Positions 8,956-63,830 of a stretch of 64,000 nt of DNA are shown in pieces (position 1 is the first letter of the stretch; the number at the start of each line of letters is the position of its first letter). Made by a program: the position numbers and the translations under genes. The DNA lies in assembly GCF_056746865.1 (NCBI RefSeq), contig NZ_CM163382.1, one strand, 5' to 3'. The notes below the pieces were generated by a model that made no database searches, had not been told where the DNA came from, and saw nothing but the letters and a program-made list of their open reading frames with translations.

Positions 8956-10086
8956 ATGACCGGACGTAAAAACAAATGTGTCAGAAAAAATTGTAACAAT
9001 CAGGTTTTCTCAGTAAAAATGGCAGTGGAGAAAAGACTGTGCAGAAAACATTATGAGAGGTTTTGTGAGCTCAAAAAAAGAAGAGAGCAAAATCCTGTTC
9101 ACAGATTAAATGAAGCATTGCCAAGAAAGATAAAAGGACCAAAAAGTAAGAAAAAATTAGTAAAAGAAAGAGAAATCATTAACAGCAGAAAAAAACATAA
9201 ACAGGAGCAGGGACCATCGCTGACTGAACTTAATAAAAAAGTTCGTGAGATACTGAAAACTCCTGCATGGAGAACGCTGGAAACGAGAATTCGAAGAAAC
9301 GGAATCACATTTAAGTCAAAAGCAGAGTTAGATGCGCTTTCTGAACTTTATGCAATTTATTCATGGGTTTCATATTGCAAACGGGGCGATAATTATTCTG
9401 TGTGGTTTTTGAATTGTCCGGATGTAAATATAAACCTTCATGTGTGCGAATGCCGGTCTTCTGAAAGCGATTGTTATCTGCCATCTCGTTTTATTATTCT
9501 TCCAGCTCCATTAAGGCAAAAAGTAAAAAGAAAATACTCGGCTAATTCGTCTGGGGTACCAGGACATAATGATTCAAAAAGTCTTTATAAGACAGTTTTG
9601 TCTGTTTGTGGTGGGAAAAGAGAAACCGAATTGTTCTTTTATTCACTGCCAGTAAAGACTAATCATCATCCTTACTGGATTAAAAGTGGTGTGGTTAAAA
9701 GATTTCCTCCTGTTTTTGGTTTGTTGTTTTATGAACAGGAAAGATTAACAGGAGGTGTTTTTCGTTATGTGTTGATAAGGTTTTATAATACTTTTAAGGA
9801 GAATTTGTTTTTTGTTGAGATTGTCTCGTGCTGTTTTCTTGTTGAGCTTTTTCATGATATTGATTCGTTTTTTATAAATCAACGATTAAGTAAGCTGGAA
9901 AGTTTTATAGATAAGTGGAGGGAGGGTAAAGAAATCTGGATAAAAGCATATCTACAACTGATACATAATACATTGGGAATAACTGAAACAGAAAAACTCG
10001 TCAATCTATATAATTCATTTTTTACTGATAAAGTGGTTATCTGGGATGAATCAGTAAAAAAAGTTAAGTGGATTTATGAGAAATAG
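8956..10086 (+). CDS. Hypothetical protein, 376 aa, Cys/Lys-rich N-terminus, no recognisable family; visibly AT-rich foreign gene
   Basis: Long stop-free ORF in AT-rich DNA (unlikely by chance), RBS aggag upstream of ATG; N-terminal C-x6-C...C-x2-H-x4-C and a lysine-rich tract; aromatic-rich C-terminal half. Confidence 0.55.
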   Translation: MTGRKNKCVRKNCNNQVFSVKMAVEKRLCRKHYERFCELKKRREQNPVHRLNEALPRKIKGPKSKKKLVKEREIINSRKKHKQEQGPSLTELNKKVREILKTPAWRTLETRIRRNGITFKSKAELDALSELYAIYSWVSYCKRGDNYSVWFLNCPDVNINLHVCECRSSESDCYLPSRFIILPAPLRQKVKRKYSANSSGVPGHNDSKSLYKTVLSVCGGKRETELFFYSLPVKTNHHPYWIKSGVVKRFPPVFGLLFYEQERLTGGVFRYVLIRFYNTFKENLFFVEIVSCCFLVELFHDIDSFFINQRLSKLESFIDKWREGKEIWIKAYLQLIHNTLGITETEKLVNLYNSFFTDKVVIWDESVKKVKWIYEK

Positions 10087-10619
10087 TACCATTTAACTGA
10101 AAGCCACCATAACGTCTTTTTGACTACATCCATGATAATGAGTCTCATTTTGATTTCGTTTTTTTTGTTTCGGGAAATTTTCCGAACATCAGTGATAATG
10201 AGGGTTTTGTTGTTTTTGTTTCTGCAATGTTTGAGGGCTGTTCCTGGAGATGATTCGTTGCTTGTGAGCAAGAGGTGGTCCGCTTTACTGGACAAGTTTT
10301 GCATTTGTTGAGTGGTGAAATGGAAGTAAAAAGAGCCCCTTTCTGGCAATGACTGAAAAAGTCAGTAGCGTGTGACAGTAAAAACTAACATAAAGTGATT
10401 ATCGTATGATTATGACAATGACTTATAACTTTTATGAAAAGAACAACAGAAACTATGAAACCATAGCAGATTCCTGAGACCATGTTTTCTGAGGTAGAGA
10501 AAATAATTCAAGAGTAAACCAGTTTGTTTTTTGGTCAGTAAAGAACCATGCCTGATGTGAAAACGGGTAATCAACATTCAGTCTGCATGAATGTCTGAGA
10601 ATGTTGCTAATGTCGGTAT

Positions 10620-10760
10620 GATACTATATACACGTATTTTACTAAGTATTTTTACTAAGCATTTCAGTAAGTGTTTTACCAGACATACACGTGTTTTCAT
10701 AAACAGCCCTATAAGTGTTTTCATTAAGCATTGCTGTACACATTGCTTTGTCTGAAACAC
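10620..10760. repeat. Iteron-like short direct repeats (ACACGTATTTT / AGTAAGTGTTTT / ACACGTGTTTTC / ATAAGTGTTTTC) in AT-rich noncoding DNA
   Basis: At least four closely spaced copies of a TGTTTT/TATTTT-cored motif read directly in the sequence. Confidence 0.4.
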
Positions 10761-11601
10761 ATCCAGTTTAGTAAATCTTTACGTTAGCTAAAATCAGTTT
10801 AAAGCTGCTGTAAAACCTTTCTGTTTAAGCAATCAATCTGCTATTCGATTTTACTGATGTTGCGTTTAACCTTTTCTGAGTTTTTGTGTTTTTAGTCGTT
10901 AACCTGAGACAAGTGTCTTTACGTAAAAACGCAAATCCGACTGAGATAACCTGGTGTGATTTACGGTGTGCTTGCGACGATTTTGTTAAATGGTTCTATG
11001 GATGATTTTGTGACGATGAGATTGATGAGATGATTAACTGGCCCTGGTGTTTTTTCTCAGTGCAAGGTGATTATCTTCATCATAAGGCTCTTTTCAGAAA
11101 AAGCGTGATGATTGGTTCTGGTGTTTTGATTCAGATGAGATTTACGTTATCGATGGTTAATCGTTTTTATGGTGTGTTGAAAAGTAACGTTTTCACGATA
11201 AGAAAATCGATTCTGATATTGGTGAACTTTGTTCTTGTGGCAGGGTTATCTGTAAACAGGTTTTAAGTGCGCTATTCGGCTCTGTGATTGAGTTGTGTGG
11301 TTAAGCTGTAGGTTTTGGTGTTGTTGTTGATTTACAGCGCCAGAAAGCGTTCTGATTGCGTTTTTGATGTTTTGTTTGCACGTTCTGTTGATCCGTTTCC
11401 CTTCAGGCTTTGTAGTTTTTAAAAACCATTTATGCCGTTGTTGTGTGTTTTATCCTGCGTGTAGGTTTATCTTTTCTTCGTGGGGGATTCATTCTGTTTT
11501 AATCAGGAGCCATTGGCGTTGCTCAATGGCGGGATGCCGTAAAGTTTTACCGCAGTGATTAATGATGTGAAGTCAATCCAAATCAACGGAGATCTCTCAT
11601 C

Positions 11602-12333
11602 ATGAATCAACCAATACACAATGCTTACTGGTTATCCCGTTTTGAAAGTATTCTCAACAGTGCCCTGGCGCAACACCGTGCCGTCTCGTTAATCCGGGTG
11701 GATTTACGTTTCCCTGAGTATATGCCTGCCACCATCATGGATACCGATTTAGATTCAGCGGTGATTTCTCGTTTTTTTGCATCCCTGAAAGCAAAAATTC
11801 AGGCTTACCAGCGACATAAACGACGTGCCAACAAGCGTGTGCGTGCAACCACTCTGCGTTATTTCTGGTGTCGGGAGTTTGGCAAGGAAAAAGGCAGGAA
11901 ACATTATCACGTGATATTACTGCTCAACAAAGATACCTGGTGCTCGCCAGGGGATTTCACCGTTCCTTCTTCGCTGGCGACACTGATCAAGCTGGCATGG
12001 TGTAGTGCTCTGCATCTTGAGCCCTGGCAGGGTAATGGACTGGTTCATTTTTCCAGGCGGACGCCTTTCCGTAAACCGACATCATCTGATGCTCGCCCTT
12101 CTTCCGATGATACGCCTTTGTCGGGTGGATGTTCTGATACCAGGAAGGCTTCAGACAAAAAGCCGGGTGAAGCCGCTGTTCTCTGGATCAAGCGTGGTGA
12201 TGTGGAAGCGCTGCAGAAAGCCCGGAACAGAGCCAGTTATCTCGTGAAATATGAGACGAAGCAGCATGACGGTTCCGGGCAACGTAATTATGGTTGCAGT
12301 CGTGGGCCGGGGCGTCTGCTGGATGGCAGGTGA
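11602..12333 (+). CDS. Inovirus Gp2-like protein (YagK/YfjJ family) of CP4-type elements
   Basis: N-terminus MNQPIHNAYWLSRFESILNSALAQHRAVSLIRVDLRFPE recognised from memory of the YagK family; RBS ggag 12 nt upstream. Confidence 0.55.
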   Translation: MNQPIHNAYWLSRFESILNSALAQHRAVSLIRVDLRFPEYMPATIMDTDLDSAVISRFFASLKAKIQAYQRHKRRANKRVRATTLRYFWCREFGKEKGRKHYHVILLLNKDTWCSPGDFTVPSSLATLIKLAWCSALHLEPWQGNGLVHFSRRTPFRKPTSSDARPSSDDTPLSGGCSDTRKASDKKPGEAAVLWIKRGDVEALQKARNRASYLVKYETKQHDGSGQRNYGCSRGPGRLLDGR

Positions 12334-12689
12334 GCCCTGTAAAACGACATCCGGTGTCTGAGCTTATGCTACAGGACGTTGGCTGACGCCCTTAGCTCGT
12401 TTTCTGAAAAAGTCGTCCTGAAGTCATGCAACGGTATTTTTCTCTGCTTTCGCTCCTGGAAACACTCCGTCGGTAAAACCTTACTGTCCTGCTTAATGAT
12501 GTGAACCGAAGTCAACGGAGAGCATTCATTCTGAACCTGCATCCGGTGTTCTGTCCCTTGTCGGTTACCTGATCTTCCCGTTCTGCCGCGGTTTTTCACT
12601 TATTCCATCAACCCCATACGCAAGCCATAACACGTCAGCGCATCCACGGGCAGGACGCGTTGTGGGCTGCGTATAACGGAACATATCTT

Positions 12690-13262
12690 ATGAATGCTAT
12701 CCCTTATTTCGACTATAGCATGGCGCCCTTCTGGCCATCTTATCAGAACAAAATCATCGGCGTTCTCAACCGTGTGTTGCGCGAGCAGTCCTGCTCCCGA
12801 ATACGGCGGATCCTGCTTCGTCTGCCGGGGGAACATGGCAACATCTTCAGCGACAGAAAAACCTGGTTCGGTATGGCCTTTATCGAAACCGTCAGTGCGC
12901 TGATGAATGCAACACCCGGACGCGACCTCTGCTGGCTCCTGACACGTCATCCTGAAAAACCGGAATACCACGTGGTGCTGTGCGTCAGACAGGAATATTT
13001 CGACGGCCCTGAGCTGGACCGGTTGATTCTGGATGCCTGGAGCAACGTACTGGGCTTCGCGTCACCGGGTGAAGCAGCACCGTACCAGAAACAGATAACC
13101 CGGGATGTGGTGCTGGACAGTTGTTCACCGGACTGCGAAGAGAGACTCAAAGAGCTGATATGGGCGTTCAGTGATTTCGCCCGCGATCGTCGTGGTGTGC
13201 GCGATCCGGAAGCCCGTTACCTCGCCGGTAATCCCTGGTATCCCGTAGCAGGCCAGCTCTGA
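12690..13262 (+). CDS. Second YagK/YfjJ-family-like protein (paralogous module)
   Basis: 190-aa ORF from ATG 12690; similar leader element upstream (TTAATGATGTGAA...CAACGGAGA); family call is tentative. Confidence 0.4.
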   Translation: MNAIPYFDYSMAPFWPSYQNKIIGVLNRVLREQSCSRIRRILLRLPGEHGNIFSDRKTWFGMAFIETVSALMNATPGRDLCWLLTRHPEKPEYHVVLCVRQEYFDGPELDRLILDAWSNVLGFASPGEAAPYQKQITRDVVLDSCSPDCEERLKELIWAFSDFARDRRGVRDPEARYLAGNPWYPVAGQL

Positions 13263-13330
13263 AAGCTCAGCTCAGCAGATTCACCCGCATTTGCCCAACA
13301 TTCATAAATCTCACAGAGGACATTCTGACC

Positions 13331-13567
13331 ATGTTGACCTCAATGACAGGTCACGACAGCGTATTGCTGCGTGCCGACGATCCCCTGATCGACATGAACT
13401 ACATCACCAGCTTCACTGGTATGACCGACAAATGGTTTTACAAGCTGATCAGTGAAGGCCATTTCCCTAAACCCATCAAACTGGGGCGCAGCAGCCGCTG
13501 GTACAAAAGTGAAGTGGAGCAGTGGATGCAGCAACGAATCGAGGCATCACGAGGGGCAGCAGCATGA
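13331..13567 (+). CDS. alpA: AlpA-family phage/integrative-element transcriptional regulator
   Basis: 78-aa ORF with AlpA-like core (YITSFTGMTDKWFYKLISEGHFPKPIKLGRSSRWYKSEVEQWM). Confidence 0.8.
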   Translation: MLTSMTGHDSVLLRADDPLIDMNYITSFTGMTDKWFYKLISEGHFPKPIKLGRSSRWYKSEVEQWMQQRIEASRGAAA

Positions 13568-13767
13568 AACGTGTTGTAATGCCGGTACGCTGGCAATGTG
13601 CAAAATACCAGCGTTGGTATTGTGGAAATCAGCCCTGTCCCTGGTGCTGGCGACCTGCTGCCCCCGTCTGTCATTCCTCGTTCTTCGCTGTAACAGGCAT
13701 CGTACCGGTCTCGGCGTGCTTTCCTGCGTACCGACACCGGTTCAGCAACATTCAAGGGGATCAAATC

Positions 13768-14304
13768 GTGCAAATAACCGAAACCGTACTTTCAGAGCCG
13801 GTGGAAATCCGGCGTTTTATTCAGCAGGCGGTGGATCACTGGCCGCGTCTGCTGGCCGTCCACTTCACACTCCATTCGGCAGAAGGAAACATCAACGGAC
13901 AACAGATTCATGCATTCTGTACTTCCTTTTATGAACGTATTACTGAGCGTAATCACACGACCAGTCCATCATCGCCGGTGGTATTACGCTGGTTGCGGGA
14001 ACAACATGGAGGAGCAACAATGCGATGCCTGTTGCTGCTCAGCCAGACGAGTATTTGTCACCCGCGAGCCAGTGTCACAGTTGATGAACAATGTTCGCAA
14101 GTGGTGGATTTACTGCAGCAGACCTGGCGGGGGATGGATACGGGCGGACAATGTCGGGTGGAAAGGTGTTTTCAGGCTGCCCGGGGTGATACATCCGGCC
14201 AGTATATTGCGTTAAAAACAGTTGCATTGTCTCTGGGGTTACCGGTTGTGACCGGTATTACCCATCGCCCGGTACAGCGCTGTACATTGATTACAGCTCA
14301 GTGA
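13768..14304 (+). CDS. Hypothetical protein (GTG start) downstream of alpA; a degenerate paralog lies at 42410-43010
   Basis: RBS agggga plus GTG conserved in both copies, while the upstream DNA differs by indels (so the longer 13522 ORF is unlikely to be the real start). Confidence 0.45.
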   Translation: MQITETVLSEPVEIRRFIQQAVDHWPRLLAVHFTLHSAEGNINGQQIHAFCTSFYERITERNHTTSPSSPVVLRWLREQHGGATMRCLLLLSQTSICHPRASVTVDEQCSQVVDLLQQTWRGMDTGGQCRVERCFQAARGDTSGQYIALKTVALSLGLPVVTGITHRPVQRCTLITAQ

Positions 14305-14321
14305 ACAGCGCTGTTGTGCAG

Positions 14322-14833
14322 TCAACGAGGTTTTCTGTCTTTTCGTCGGTCATTCAGCATCATTAAACGGGTCTCTGCCTCTTTCTGTTCCTGTGGTGTC
14401 ACTTCCCCGCACGGCTGACCGTTCAGGTTGTAACGGGCGCCACCTGCTATTAACGCACGGTAATAGCGCGGAGACTGCACATAAGACGCCACTGCTGCAT
14501 GTAATGTACCAGCGCCAAACGCCAGTTCTCGGATGGCGATATCCTGTATCAGGTCGTCAGGTATCCCCACTTTAAGTGGTTTTGTTTTTTTCCCGGTTGA
14601 ATGACTCAGGCCAGAGTTCCACAAGACGAATAATGCGCTTACGGTTTTTGCTCTGGCGTTTTGTCATGTCGCCACGGTGTTTTATCAGCAGGTTTCTGTT
14701 TATCGTTCAACTGTGGTATCTGGTCACCGGCCTTCATTTTGTATGCTGTGTCCGTTTTATCCTGCAGCGGCGTTGCCGGTGATTTACTGAAAATACCCTG
14801 CGGTTTACGGTTAATGGTCAGAGTTACCATCAA
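14322..14833 (-). other. Two short minus-strand ORFs (100 aa and 64 aa), possibly one frameshifted gene; unknown function
   Basis: ORFs 14322-14624 and 14639-14833 in different frames; no family recognised. Confidence 0.2.
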
Positions 14834-15188: not shown

Positions 15189-15952
15189 GGTGGTGACTCC
15201 AATTAGTAGAACATATATTTTTCGATAAAGGCACCGATGACTTTTTCATGAAGTTCTACAGAGCGCGAGAAACAGATAGTTCTGCGGGCCAGACGTTTGA
15301 TTCGGGTTCTCAGAGGTAGATGTTGCGCTCAATGCGCTGAGTAAAAATCTTACCAGTCAGATGCTTCTCCTTCGGTAACTCTCTGGTGTAACTACCCCAT
15401 TCGTCAGTGGTCAACATACCGATGGTAAAAGGGCAAGCAGCGCCAGCAATTCACGACAGGTTTAATCAGTCCGTAGGCCAAAAGTGTAGGCCAGAACGCC
15501 ACCAGTTTTCGTGTTGTACGTGTACCAGAGCCAGTGCTGTCGCGCTTTACTGCCGACAAAACTCCATTGCTCATCAAGTTCGCAGATGAGTGCCATATCA
15601 GCATGAGCGACCGGGTATGACGTTATTCTTCGTGGCGAGAGTTTTTTAAAGTCCGGATGACAGTATTAATGCCGATTTTCAGCGTACGGGCAGTATCGCG
15701 AACTCCGGCACCGTTGAAAGCCATTTCAGTGATTTGCTCTTTAACTCCCGGTTTACGGGCCTCGTAACGGTAAGTGAGCTGAAGCACTCGATGACAGTCA
15801 CGGCAGCGAAATCGATCATGTCCTTTGGGTTCTTCCCGTGACGGTAAACCTGAACGGACTGGCAACAGGAGCAATGAAGGTTAACTGTGACCATGAAAGA
15901 ACCTTAAAAGTGGCTATTATACTCCTAATTCAACTAATTGGAGTCATTACCG
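15189..15952 (-). mobile_element. insA: IS1-family element (divergent), full length with about 23-bp terminal inverted repeats; insA recognisable, insB degraded
   Basis: IRs GGTGGTGACTCCAATTAGTAGAA (15189) and reverse complement of ...TTCAACTAATTGGAGTCATTACC (15952); InsA-like ORF 15623-15874 (QLTYRYEARKPGVKEQITEMAFNGAGVRDTARTLKIGINTVIRTLKNS). Confidence 0.7.
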
Positions 15953-15962
15953 TATTCATAAT

Positions 15963-16130
15963 GGATTAGGTTCAGCAGTTGCTGAAGTGCTTGTAGAAAC
16001 TTGTCCTGTGCCCATGCGTCGGGTGGGGGTTAAAGAGCGGTATGGCCAGGTTGAAACTCAGGACTTTTTACAGAGAGAGTACGGGTTAACCGCGCAAGCT
16101 ATTGTGGCGGCAGCCAGAGAGCTATTGTAA
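15963..16130 (+). pseudogene. 3'-terminal fragment of a gene, possibly transketolase-family C-terminal region, truncated by the IS1 element
   Basis: In-frame peptide GLGSAVAEVLVETCPVPMRRVGVKERYGQVETQDFLQREYGLTAQAIVAAARELL ending at TAA 16128-16130, with no upstream start. Confidence 0.3.
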
Positions 16131-40239: not shown

Positions 40240-41287
40240 ATGAAATATACACCGGTTGGCGTTGATATCGCAAAGTATCTGATTCAGGTTCACTTCATCA
40301 ATGAGTACACGGGCGAAGTGGTGGACAAGCAGCTACGTAGCAAGGATTTTCTGACGTTCTTCAGCAACCGGGAACCCTGTCTGATAGGTATGGAGGCTTG
40401 TGGAGGCTCCCAACATTGGGCGAGGGAACTGGAAAAAACTGGGACACAAAGTTCGGCTGTTGCAAGCTCGCTTCGTTAAAGCATTCGTCATGGGCAACAA
40501 AAATGATGTGATGGATGCGCGTGCTATCTGGATGGCGGTACAGCAGCCCAGTAAAGATATCGCTGTTAAAACGGAAGAGAAGCAGTCAGTTCTGGTCCTG
40601 CACCGTTCGCGCAGACAACTGGTGAAGTTCAGAACCTCGCATATTAATACCCTTGGCACGCTCCTCGAGTTTGGTGAAATCCTCCACAAAGATTGGACAG
40701 CGATGGACAGAAAGCTACCGACAGCCCTAGAGCGAATGAAGACGAACCTGCCGCCGTATCTCATCACTGTGCTTGAATACCAGTACAACAGACTGAGTGA
40801 GCTGGGCATGCAGATAGATGGCCTTGATAAACAGATTAACAGCGTGGCACGGCAGAGCGAAAACTGTAAGCGCCTAATGGAAATCCCCGGTGTGGGGCCG
40901 TTAATCGCTACGGCGGTGGTCGCCACCATGGGCGAGGCCTCAGCATTTAAATCCGGACGTGAGTTTGACGCTTATGTCTGTCTGGTGCCGAAGCAGACGG
41001 GGTCCGCTGGGAAGGTTCGCATGCTGGGGATAAGCAAACGTGGGGATACCTACCACCGGACATTATTTATCCATGGGGCAAGGGCGGCAGCATTGCTTAC
41101 CAAAGAACCCGGCCCATGGATCACGGAGCTGAAAAAACGGCAGCCGACAGGTGTAATGCCGATCAGTTTAGGAGCAGTTGACCGATCCAGGGTCTGTTTA
41201 AGAATCCTGAAACGCTCACTCGTTTCCGGATTTTTGTGCACAGAAAAACCCCAGCTAGGCTGGGGGCCGGAAAGCTTTCAGCTTTGA
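40240..41287 (+). pseudogene. IS110-family transposase, frameshifted
   Basis: N-terminal MKYTPVGVDIAKY... in ORF 40141-40479 continues in ORF 40400-41287 after a frame change; the C-terminal part is IS110-like. Confidence 0.6.
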
Positions 41288-41376
41288 GCCAGTTATTAAA
41301 ACCCCTTTTGATTTGTTAAAACACCTTGCGGTCTGGCAACTGCAAGTGTCAAACAAGAAATCAAAAGGGGGTCCCA

Positions 41377-63049: not shown

Positions 63050-63830
63050 TACGATATTCATTGTGATTCCCCTGCTGAGTGAGTGCATTTCGTACAGTTA
63101 ACCGCAAAAGGAGGGGGTACTCCATTCCATGAACTGGAAGCCCAGATACGATGCATAGAGTCACCTGATATTAAAAAGAACGAGGATCTTGAGGACGAGA
63201 ACCGACGTCCAAAACAGATGCTTGCCGACCTTAGCCTAGAGAACCGGCATTGAAAGACATTATCGAAAAAAGCTTTAAAACCAGCCTGTAAGCGTGAGCT
63301 TGTTACTCATCAGATAACGACATTTGGACTCAGTGTCCATCAGGCCTGCCGGAGTCTGAACCAGAGCAGAACGGTTTCCCATTACCGTCCGGATACCACG
63401 TGGTACGACCCCGTTATTGTGGTGGTGCAGGCAGTGGACGAGCGATATCCTCGATACGGTTTTTCAAAACTTTTTCAGGTTCTGAGGCAGCAGGTTCGCG
63501 GCAAATCGCAGTTATCCGGTCATGCTGCGCATAGATAATGGTTCGGAATTTATCTCTCTAACGCTGGCTGAATGGGCTGATATACACGCAGTAAAACGGG
63601 AGTTTATCCAGCCGGGTAAGCTGACGTAGAACGCTTTTATTGGGCGTTTTAACAGGACACACCGTACAGAAATACTCGATTTTTATCTGTTCAGAACGCT
63701 GAATGAAGTTCTAGAAATTACGGAGAAATGGTTATCAGAATATAGCTATGAACGCACACATGAATCACTGAACAATAAGACGCTGGAAGAATATCGACGA
63801 CACCATTATTTGACCAAGATATAAAAATGC
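63050..63830 (+). pseudogene. IS3-family transposase debris
   Basis: Fragments PKQMLADLSLENRH and LNEVLEITEKWLSEYSYERTHESLNNKTLEEYRR in multiple frames. Confidence 0.45.

Follow-up and report, generated by a model that had tools for sequence, protein, structure and literature searches.

A repeated non-coding block in a pathogenicity island

A non-coding block of ~70-80 bases occurs twice in an Escherichia coli pathogenicity island, preceding two distantly related replication-protein-like genes, and this repeat is genuine and far beyond chance. As conserved as coding DNA, the block is most likely a shared control region that has not been characterised before, and a feature of an ordinary kind. 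The first copy, E1 (11536..11606, + strand), ends at the ATG that opens the Gp2-732 gene, and the second, E2 (12453..12535, + strand), lies ~160 nt upstream of a gene that we call hyp190. An earlier note had proposed that the regions preceding the two genes share an element, spaced differently in the second copy; both points hold in the window (the whole 64 kb stretch of DNA that was analysed), and the similarity is longer than first noted.

The 13-mer TTAATGATGTGAA has just two exact copies in the 64 kb window, 11559-11571 and 12493-12505, each in + orientation, where 0.13 matches would be expected by chance and a count of two was reached in 0 of 100 shuffles. Downstream of each 13-mer stands TCAACGGAGA (11583-11592 in E1, 12512-12521 in E2). 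Two ungapped blocks make up the similarity, 11539-11571 against 12473-12505 (76% identity) and 11568-11606 against 12497-12535 (74%), and their offsets of 934 and 929 imply a 5-nt indel between the 13-mer and TCAACGGAGA, this gap being 5 nt shorter in E2 than in E1. Pairwise local alignment of the two upstream regions scores 36, compared with 19.6 +/- 2.2 and a maximum of 30 for shuffles; under alternative scoring schemes z is 5.8-10.6 and 0 of 1000 shuffles equal the alignment. Three parts are common to the copies, namely a GTAA-N4-TTAC palindrome, the 13-mer and TCAACGGAGA, with a palindrome-to-13-mer distance of exactly 20 nt (counted from the GTAA start) in both. The composite pattern of palindrome plus 13-mer matches only E1 and E2 in the window, with 0.00 matches expected. 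Searching the literature for the motif turned up nothing of relevance, and the sequence does not match a described operator.

E1 and the Gp2-732 gene

E1 is delimited by the repeat blocks and by an nhmmer match at 11532-11607 (E 1.4e-18). Its palindrome P1, CCGTAAAGTTTTACCG (11537..11552), has the core GTAA-N4-TTAC and was found with the pattern CGGTAANNNNTTACCG at one mismatch. It is followed on the + strand by box A, TGATTAATGATGTGAA (11556..11571), with the exact 13-mer at the 20-nt distance also seen in E2, and by box B, TCAACGGAGATC (11583..11594), identified by direct sequence reading. Box B contains the Shine-Dalgarno sequence of Gp2-732, GGAG at 11588-11591, 10 nt before the ATG. The first copy had been placed about 60 bp upstream of 11602; it is indeed upstream of that start, with the 13-mer beginning 43 nt before the ATG and the full homology reaching ~65 nt.

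The Gp2-732 gene (11602..12333, + strand; 732 nt, 243 aa) belongs to the inovirus Gp2 / YagK_YfjJ family (PF11726 E 2.9e-36; PF23343 E 3.4e-10) and is annotated in RefSeq as 'inovirus Gp2 family protein'. Reading of its sequence reveals both an HUH-like HYH motif and a YLVK motif. Behind the gene is a degraded terminator-like hairpin with a U-rich tail (12374..12405, + strand), which is intact in other island variants. In one of these (L002) the stem is GC-rich and 11 bp long (centroid -20.6 kcal/mol, z -2.2), and two others (L011 and L012) have a stem of 8-9 bp followed by GCTCGTTTTCTG; the window allele is missing part of the left arm.

E2 and the start of hyp190

The second copy is matched by nhmmer at 12462-12537 (E 1.5e-22). 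Its palindrome P1', CGGTAAAACCTTACTG (12471..12486; consensus CGGTAAAAACTTACCG), was located by pattern match and variant alignment, and box A', TGCTTAATGATGTGAA (12490..12505, + strand), by the exact 13-mer and variant alignment. Box B', TCAACGGAGAGC (12512..12523, + strand), contains an SD-like GGAG that no usable start codon follows: at the position that matches the E1 ATG in the E1/E2 alignment (offset 929) there is a CTG (12531..12533, + strand), apparently a vestigial start. The boxes thus span 12493-12521, not 12491-12520 as first given, with the end of the second 169 nt ahead of the ATG at 12690. The reading frame that follows the CTG meets a stop in the window and is disrupted by 1-nt indels at two places in other variants. 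A leader peptide behind the SD-like box, open in some alleles, was rejected on account of this stop and these indels. We also rejected a longer hyp190 protein starting at the E2 pseudo-start, since the database homologues all begin with MNAIPYFDYS or something very similar, and where entries are longer this is due to a C-terminal frameshift extension. The lack of a conserved small ORF and the uniform start of the hyp190 homologues indicate that the E2 block is non-coding.

Between E2 and the gene is a poorly conserved spacer (12536..12674, + strand; mean pairwise identity 0.3-0.8), the probable hyp190 5' UTR. In most variants it holds the 3' arm of a hairpin pairing with GTGAACCGAAGTCAACGGAGA, the corresponding arm in the window being 12577-12597. 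Its origin as a decayed 5' coding region of hyp190 or Gp2 was rejected (z -0.4 and 1.7). Immediately before the gene, the proximal ribosome-binding region AACGGAACATATCTT (12675..12689, + strand) looks like a weak third copy of box B and its start context; compared with the 3' part of E1 it gives z 2.9, with 6 of 500 shuffles as good, and compared with E2 it gives z 2.4.

Relationship of the two genes and their modules

The hyp190 gene (12690..13262, + strand) encodes 190 aa. The earlier note had counted two Gp2-like genes, which holds for Gp2-732, while hyp190 is, on profile evidence, only remotely Gp2-like: neither PF11726 nor PF23343 matches at E 0.01, and the PF11726 hit has E 0.26 and 11.7 bits (cut-off 25.8). 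Remote homology or a shared fold with YagK/YfjJ members is supported, both proteins are of the Rep/G2P fold class, and in hyp190 the family HUH is replaced by a degenerate EYH, in which the His pair is absent, with no clear catalytic Tyr motif. The open reading frame hyp178 (13768-14304), considered as a third paralogue, was rejected at an hhalign Prob of 0.8%. The Gp2-732 and hyp190 proteins are ~21% identical, whereas the E1 and E2 leaders are ~75% identical, which suggests that the leader was probably copied later than the gene duplication, or else is under far stronger constraint.

The element is present twice, but the single duplicated module that was first suggested is too simple, as E1 and E2 sit in separately recombining modules. 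The Gp2-732 module carries E1 and its homology ends at 12428-12434; the hyp190-AlpA module carries E2 and starts at ~12446-12455. These recombine independently, and Gp2-732 is found without E2 and E2 without Gp2-732. A 567-nt Gp2 allele can stand in place of the 732-nt gene, in which case the upstream stop codon is ~30 nt from E2, with no clear terminator between. We rejected the E1-Gp2-E2 stretch as an excisable cassette, because no E1/E2 hybrid junction occurs among 5,426 complete genomes, and there were no empty sites either. Always downstream of hyp190, in a conserved gene order, is a gene for a small HTH protein of the AlpA family (13331..13567, + strand; PF05930 E 2e-10; TIGR01764 excisionase domain E 4e-4), a candidate trans factor. 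The island is of the CP4-57-like type, with aerobactin genes among its virulence cargo here. About one-third of complete E. coli genomes have such islands with the Gp2-like / hyp190 / AlpA module, frequently more than one, and each of the E1 and E2 regions is found in ~35% of these genomes, which together contain ~3,200 copies of E1 and ~2,500 of E2. Carriers of the island include E. coli SMS-3-5 (NC_010498), with 96% identity over this region, and strain 98232.

Conservation and distribution

The motif recurs with other copies of these genes: E1 was present in all eight Gp2-732 loci examined and is retained in every Gp2-732 context, plasmids and loci lacking E2 among them. E2 was present in each of the 19 hyp190 loci examined and is retained regardless of the Gp2 allele upstream. 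Comparison with other YagK/YfjJ loci sets the limits of the element. It is missing from K-12 yfjJ and yagK, and tandem Gp2-like pairs in distant relatives, including relatives of hyp190, have no shared leader element. Among 100,044 species representatives, the exact two-box pattern occurs in one metagenome-assembled genome only, so the element is restricted to E. coli-type islands. E1/E2 is not a general YagK/YfjJ leader, and the proposal of a conserved regulatory or 5' UTR element is upheld in the narrower form of a conserved non-coding block, most economically explained by a role in regulation or as a 5' leader. A possible third member, E3, upstream of the 567-nt Gp2 allele (CCGTCTGTAAGTTATTACCG...TGATTATGAGCGAA) was rejected (pairwise z 2.4-2.9, no nhmmer match at E 10); its resemblance appears at most weak and is unproven.

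Across eight island variants the mean pairwise identity of E2 is 0.82-0.96, the level of coding DNA, compared with 0.3-0.8 in the non-coding flanks on both sides. The spacer allele of L002/L003, on first impression an unrelated sequence, is in fact a very diverged allele that aligns with the window spacer at only z 4.1, and the E2 block there is nearly identical. Within the element, the half-sites GTAA and TTAC are identical in E1, E2 and all variants but one (an E2 variant with CTAC), while the central 4 nt of the palindrome vary among copies and variants and the 5-nt stretch before box A' differs in almost every E2 variant. The outer palindrome pairs vary without compensation (CG 11, CA 1, UG 1, CU 1 for one pair and GC 12, GU 1, AC 1 for another). 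This pattern of constraint looks like DNA recognition by a protein.

The same data bear on whether E2 could be a functionless relic, that is, a leader fragment with the first coding bases copied by recombination before another gene, persisting only because the islands are young and recombine often. The dead CTG start behind the SD-like box, the confinement to E. coli-type islands and the lack of a shared leader in distant homologous gene pairs are all consistent with it. However, the block is conserved like coding sequence while the flanking non-coding DNA has diverged to 30-80%, with one allele almost unalignable, and neutral decay would not yield invariant half-sites and boxes beside freely varying spacers. 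We therefore consider a relic very improbable.

A proposed shared promoter/operator region

Our tentative reading of E1/E2, rated at slightly under an even chance, is that they form a common promoter/operator-plus-leader region to which a protein encoded by the island binds. The repeat itself, its anatomy and selective conservation, its linkage to the two modules and its narrow distribution are shown by the sequences; that it works as a promoter/operator, where transcription starts and which protein binds are inferred. E1 and E2 would be one cis-regulatory block serving two adjacent units, the Gp2-732 gene and the hyp190-AlpA operon. The GTAA-N4-TTAC palindrome and the box TG(A/C)TTAATGATGTGAA, exactly 20 nt apart, would be DNA sites in or beside the promoter, and an island-encoded DNA-binding protein reading both sites would place the two units under joint control; the AlpA-like HTH protein and one of the Rep-like proteins are candidates for this role. 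AlpA has been described as a putative activator of the integrase gene (bioRxiv 10.1101/2024.08.29.610337). In Pseudomonas aeruginosa, the AlpA binding element is GGGACG (PMC9371919); the antiterminator elements of that system were rejected as a counterpart, as the protein is different and larger and the GGGACG site is unrelated to E1/E2.

Transcription would start just downstream of box A, which contains a weak -10-like AATGAT. In E1, TCAACGGAGA is the ribosome-binding site of Gp2. Its E2 counterpart may be a vestigial ribosome-binding site, with CTG replacing the E1 start codon, that in most alleles would form the 5' arm of a hairpin opening a ~185-nt 5' UTR, and hyp190 would be translated from the second, proximal AACGGA-N9-ATGAAT site. 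The strong terminator-like hairpin after Gp2-732 in most variants leads us to expect a hyp190-AlpA promoter in the next conserved block, although with the 567-nt Gp2 allele, where no clear terminator precedes E2, a separate promoter is not required. A palindromic site conserved in sequence and not in pairing, as expected of an operator, is what the GTAA-N4-TTAC core presents.

Promoter predictions count against this reading. A sigma-70 consensus scan found no promoter at E1 or E2. The top-scoring promoter-like arrangement that a simple PWM scan finds in E1 and E2 alike lies on the minus strand (TTCACA-N16/17-TAAGGT or AAAACT), and its score of 7.2-7.8 is not above the background of 5.8 +/- 2.3; the + strand AATGAT has the key A2 and T6 but a poor -35. 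The 5-nt difference in box spacing, half a helical turn, is also awkward for one protein complex on DNA.

Possible action in the mRNA

That spacing difference matters less in RNA, and we considered whether the block acts in the mRNA and not on DNA. An E1 hairpin would hide the Shine-Dalgarno sequence and the AUG, and in E2 this sequence would form the base of a long 5'-UTR hairpin with a possible role in transcript stability, processing or attenuation. The invariant 13-mer or the SD box could also be recognised, in the two mRNAs alike, by a common trans-acting RNA or RNA-binding protein. The predicted E1 fold of -20.4 kcal/mol (z -2.9, 1 of 200 shuffles as good) is in keeping with action in the mRNA, its main hairpin pairing UUAAUGAUGUGA with UCUCAUCAUGAA and covering the AUG. 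In most E2 variants, GTGAAC..GGAGATCA in the 3' half has a complement 30-100 nt downstream (z -2.2 to -3.5), and the highly diverged L002 allele retains such complementarity (z -2.5, 5 of 300 shuffles). Against this, the E2 region is not unusually stable as RNA (z ~0 in three variants), the long hairpin is weak in the window allele (z -0.6), and the pairing partners of E1 and E2 differ, with no evident common structure. The RNAalifold covariation term is only -0.63, where low diversity (93% mean identity) leaves little power, and the sole variable helix pair (CG 6, UG 5, UA 1, CA 2), which shows a double change and is broken in two sequences, is distributed about as independent changes would give. 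In the window's minimum-energy fold, 12514-12529 pairs over a long distance with the start of hyp190 (12690-12705); this pairing was rejected, as many variants have eroded it and the consensus fold lacks it.

A ProQ/FinO-family gene adjoins the module, but it is frameshifted in a near-identical annotated genome and in others. Rfam finds nothing at E1/E2, either at gathering thresholds over the whole window or at E up to 10 over 10000-14500, and a known RNA family was accordingly rejected. The two Rfam sRNAs of the island have no special complementarity to the leaders, and targeting of the leaders by isrN or STnc490 was rejected on duplex energies weaker than background (duplexfold being crude on long sequences). 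Overall, action in the mRNA appears rather unlikely.

A possible recognition site for Rep-like proteins

Both genes downstream of the element are in the Rep/G2P fold class, and E1/E2 could instead be the recognition site of these HUH-fold proteins, origin-like or an operator, made up of the palindrome and the AT-rich box. YagK/YfjJ-type proteins would bind there to nick for rolling-circle-type replication, or merely to repress themselves. The element stands directly upstream of each Rep-fold gene with its palindrome beside an AT-rich invariant box, much as origins and iterons immediately precede the rep genes of many rolling-circle replicons, and Gp2-732 has the HUH-like HYH and YLVK motifs. 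In Pseudomonas islands, a Gp2-like gene adjoining alpA has been counted among likely core-function genes (bioRxiv 10.1101/2024.08.29.610337). Several features do not fit, however: the EYH of hyp190 with neither His pair nor clear catalytic Tyr motif, a 4-nt palindrome loop too small for nick-site presentation, the absence of iterons at E1/E2, and other YagK/YfjJ genes, including the tandem pairs in distant relatives, that do without the element. Nor does the E1-E2 DNA show any sign of behaving as a unit, given the absence of a hybrid junction in 5,426 complete genomes and the separation of the modules at 12428-12455. A Rep recognition site is thus decidedly unlikely. Its most specific form, in which Gp2-732, with intact HUH and Tyr motifs, binds or nicks at the palindrome and AT-rich box and the catalytically degenerate hyp190 binds the same site as a regulator, strikes us as quite improbable. 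If that form were correct, the Gp2-AlpA end of these very common islands would be a module for replication initiation and autoregulation that still works or did so until recently, and the element would be the first defined target sequence for the uncharacterised YagK/YfjJ family.

Comparison with known systems

Reuse of control regions is common in mobile elements, and the value of the finding is practical, not conceptual, unless E1/E2 is a target of the Rep-like proteins. A short and sharply conserved element provides bait for a regulator and precise mutation targets for the control of island maintenance, excision and replication.

Three known arrangements resemble parts of the locus. In the IS200 left-end leader, a terminator hairpin and a stem-loop that occludes the RBS precede an HUH transposase gene. 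Here too a small HUH-fold gene follows a short hairpin and then a second hairpin over the SD and AUG (the E1 fold), and past the gene there is a related block with a hairpin, oriented the same way. Unlike IS200, E1-Gp2-E2 is not mobile as one unit, E2 is part of the hyp190 module, there are no empty or hybrid sites, and the proteins are of YagK/YfjJ type and not Y1 transposases. In FinP/traJ and Inc/repZ-type systems, a leader is under antisense control helped by a FinO/ProQ-family chaperone. The likeness is in a leader that holds the ribosome-binding site of a replication- or regulatory-type gene, can form stem-loops and has a ProQ/FinO-family neighbour; the differences are that there is no antisense promoter across the ribosome-binding site (the shared minus-strand site fires away from it and is not significant) and no terminator for such an antisense RNA, and that the ProQ/FinO gene is often a pseudogene.

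The preferred reading of a shared promoter/operator brings E1/E2 close to the promoter/operators of mobile elements that are shared by co-regulated genes, such as the auto-regulated rep promoters of rolling-circle replicons and the AlpA-dependent promoters of CP4-57 and PICI-type islands. E1/E2 differ from these in having no consensus sigma-70 hexamers and in matching no described operator. They agree with them in being a short conserved block upstream of replication- or regulation-type island genes, with a palindrome of invariant half-sites and variable centre, and in the duplication of this block before two units, which would answer to one factor.

Island setting and gene content

The window is a CP4-57-type pathogenicity island on the chromosome of Escherichia coli. 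The 2.5 kb around the two element copies, E1 and E2, shares 99.9% identity with strain 98232 and seven further E. coli strains, and has matches at lower identity in 2,222 of the 5,426 complete genomes of the species. According to the RefSeq annotation of a near-identical genome, the minus strand carries a partial integrase, toxin-antitoxin genes, RadC, an antirestriction gene, DUF932 and a GTPase. Plus-strand features run from a gene for a 376-aa hypothetical protein through an ORF-free stretch of about 1.5 kb to an inovirus Gp2 family gene (Gp2-732, 11602-12333), then a gene for a 190-aa hypothetical protein (hyp190, 12690-13262), one for an AlpA-family regulator (13331-13567) and one for a further hypothetical protein, of 178 aa. 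From the minus strand, a frameshifted ProQ/FinO-family gene converges on this module (window region 14322-14624; 15535-15971 in comparison locus L001), with the frameshift annotated in the near-identical genome and several other variants; beyond it lie IS elements and then the aerobactin operon.

The stretch upstream of Gp2-732 (10087-11535), without an ORF of at least 80 aa, is AT-rich (32-40% GC), has a strong G+T skew on the plus strand, has short repeats at 10628-10738, among them a 12-nt tandem array (10634-10679), and accompanies the Gp2-732 module when that is conserved in other genomes; a promoter, H-NS-bound DNA or origin-like repeats could lie here. Two Hfq-binding sRNA families that were first described in Salmonella have full-length Rfam matches elsewhere in the island: isrN (63277-63419, minus strand, 138 bits, E 2e-30) and STnc490 (41246-41367, plus strand, 129 bits, E 9e-26).

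A leader element repeated in two separate modules

The earlier note had described a motif upstream of both Gp2-732 and hyp190 with a second box downstream, and both parts were borne out: TTAATGATGTGAA occurs in the 64 kb only at 11559 and 12493 (two matches versus 0.13 expected), and TCAACGGAGA at 11583 and 12512. The homology is longer than had been noted, with 11539-11571 corresponding to 12473-12505 and 11568-11606 to 12497-12535, and the block offsets of 934 and 929 place a 5-nt indel between the boxes. The local alignment of E1 (11536-11606) with E2 (12453-12535) scores 36, against 19.6 +/- 2.2 for shuffled sequences, a score reached by none of 1000 shuffles under three scoring schemes.

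Each copy begins with a 16-bp palindrome (CCGTAAAGTTTTACCG in E1, CGGTAAAAACTTACCG in the E2 consensus) sharing the core GTAA-N4-TTAC, then five freely variable bases (e.g. GCCTT, ACATT, GGGAT, TCGAT, GTCCT or GCAGT) and box A, TG(A/C)TTAATGATGTGAA, within which an exact 13-mer begins exactly 20 nt past the GTAA start in E1 and E2 alike. Box B, TCAACGGAGA(T/G)C, follows after 11 nt in E1 and 6 nt in E2. The sequence 11 bases past GGAG is ATGAA in E1, the start of Gp2, and so box B of E1 is its Shine-Dalgarno region; E2 has CTGAA instead, with no usable start behind box B and no conserved reading frame there among the island variants. This dead start codon suggests that E2 arose from a leader of the E1 type, which formerly stood directly before a start codon. 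That E1 and E2 are a functionless relic is, in our estimate, quite improbable. The hyp190 N-terminus is always MNAIPYFDYS or a close variant, and its translation-start site is its own proximal AACGGA-N9-ATGAAT, which has a weak similarity to box B plus start (z 2.9 and 2.4). Just upstream of E1 is a second palindrome, GCCATTG-N8-CAATGGC (11509-11533), whose counterparts in other variants differ in sequence and retain a CATTG...CAATG hairpin, e.g. GCATTGCTCAATGC in locus L011.

The two copies had also been attributed to a duplicated module. The repeated leader is real, but homology of the Gp2-732 module stops at 12428-12434 and that of the hyp190 module starts at 12446-12455, so that E1 and E2 lie in different, independently recombining modules. 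As the Gp2-732 and hyp190 proteins are only about 21% identical while the leaders are about 75% identical, and distant gene pairs have no common leader, the similarity of the leaders probably reflects copying from one unit to the other in the E. coli island lineage, and not descent from the gene duplication itself. The earlier reading is broadly right but over-general.

Relationship of hyp190 to Gp2

The description of the second gene as Gp2-like holds only as a remote relation. No significant Pfam match was found for hyp190 (PF11726 at E 0.26), but an hhalign comparison places its profile collinear with Gp2-732, starting close to the N-termini (probability 75%, E 2.6e-5), with HYH of Gp2-732 replaced by EYH. 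The family is tiny (40 matches among 1.84 billion cluster representatives), and its two distant full-length members both carry PF11726 in precomputed annotation; the 178-aa protein has no detectable relation. These distant relatives, from metagenome assemblies (L028 1845-3588 and L026 140-3573), lie in AlpA / Gp2-like / Gp2-like / UCP030791 clusters in which we found no comparable element and no common leader. With the two Gp2-like genes of L028 just 46 nt apart, a tandem Rep-like gene pair adjoining alpA looks ancestral.

Conservation and distribution

Across eight island variants, E2 (12453-12532) has a mean pairwise identity of 0.82-0.96, like hyp190 and alpA coding DNA; flanking non-coding DNA has 0.60 before it and 0.3-0.8 after. 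In loci L002 and L003, E2 is almost unchanged despite a strongly diverged spacer whose alignment with that of the window reaches only z 4.1. RefSeq places a 49-aa hypothetical protein in this spacer, between E2 and hyp190 (L002 3112-3261; L003 3097-3246, minus), probably an over-call in non-coding DNA. E2 is kept with either upstream gene, the 732-nt Gp2 or an unrelated-looking 567-nt YagK/YfjJ allele with a different leader, and E1 accompanies the 732-nt allele at every locus examined, including a plasmid and chromosomal loci lacking hyp190 and E2. Of the 5,426 complete E. coli genomes, 1,894 have the E1 region and 1,876 the E2 region, about 35% each. An HMM built from both copies recovered only E1 and E2 in the window and comparison loci (E at most 1e-18), all further matches having E above 0.7, and the element is absent upstream of K-12 yfjJ and yagK. 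Among 100,044 species-representative genomes, the exact two-box pattern is present in one, an Enterobacteriaceae MAG with both copies. We found no mention of the motif in the papers searched.

Loci L003, L004 and L008-L010 share an invariant block, AAATACC(G/A)TCTGTAAGTTATTACCGTTTTAGATCTGATTATGAGCGAAAGCATTAATTCG, some 110 nt before the 567-nt allele. Its GTAA-N4-TTAC palindrome and TGATTATGA box recall E2, and in L009 an 88-nt deletion ends exactly at the edge of the block. The likeness to E1/E2 is marginal (z about 2.5) and was not recovered by nhmmer.

Possible mechanism

Our tentative preference, at somewhat less than an even chance, is that E1 and E2 are a shared promoter/operator-plus-leader block. 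Judged by variation among the loci, the constraint is on base identity and not on pairing: the core half-sites are identical in E1, E2 and all variants but one, the palindrome centre and the adjoining 5 nt vary freely at a fixed distance to box A, and the outer pairs vary without compensation (CG 11, CA 1, UG 1, CU 1; GC 12, GU 1, AC 1). An RNA-level leader is a doubtful alternative. E1 RNA does fold significantly (z -2.9) with a hairpin occluding the AUG, and most variants show pairing between the spacer and the 3' half of E2 (z -2.2 to -3.5), the very diverged allele (z -2.5) among them, but E2 RNA by itself is not stable (z about 0), the window allele has lost most of the E2-spacer hairpin (z -0.6), the helices lack covariation, and the pairing partners of E1 and E2 differ. 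Recognition of E1/E2 by Rep-fold proteins seems unlikely.

Position speaks for a promoter/operator block: a strong terminator-like hairpin lies 3' of Gp2-732 in most variants (12374-12405 in the window, where it is degraded; L002 2931-2958; just before the right-hand break points in L011 and L012), making E2 the expected place for a hyp190-alpA promoter. The hairpin stem is the same across genomes, its 6-nt loop occurs in both orientations (CAGCCA in L002 and L011, TGGCTG in L012 and the window), and the window copy lacks part of the left arm. Counting against a promoter, no consensus sigma-70 site was found at E1 or E2, and a PWM scan of both gave nothing above background; the best site common to both copies, TTCACA-N16/17-TAAGGT or AAAACT, has minus-strand orientation (score 7.2-7.8 versus 5.8 +/- 2.3), and on the plus strand box A holds a weak -10, AATGAT (AATAAT in one variant), with a poor -35.

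Comparison with known systems

In Pseudomonas tyrosine-integrase islands, the far end carries a Gp2-like gene beside alpA, and the two are included with the genes likely to define core element functions (bioRxiv 10.1101/2024.08.29.610337). By analogy, this arrangement fits a Gp2/alpA module that would be part of the island's own machinery. The elements are of practical use for studying CP4-57-type islands, and would be of wider interest only if they prove to be targets of YagK/YfjJ proteins.

E1/E2 is unrelated to the P. aeruginosa AlpA binding element (PMC9371919). FinP/traJ-type leaders are alike only in the adjoining ProQ/FinO gene; unlike in those systems, the PWM scan gave no evident antisense promoter over the ribosome-binding site at E1/E2. 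The left end of IS200 is similar in placing a hairpin plus an RBS-occluding stem upstream of an HUH gene, although, unlike IS200, E1/E2 and the gene do not move as one unit. E1/E2 is a real, uncharacterised member of a familiar feature class, in kind a reused control region of a mobile element.
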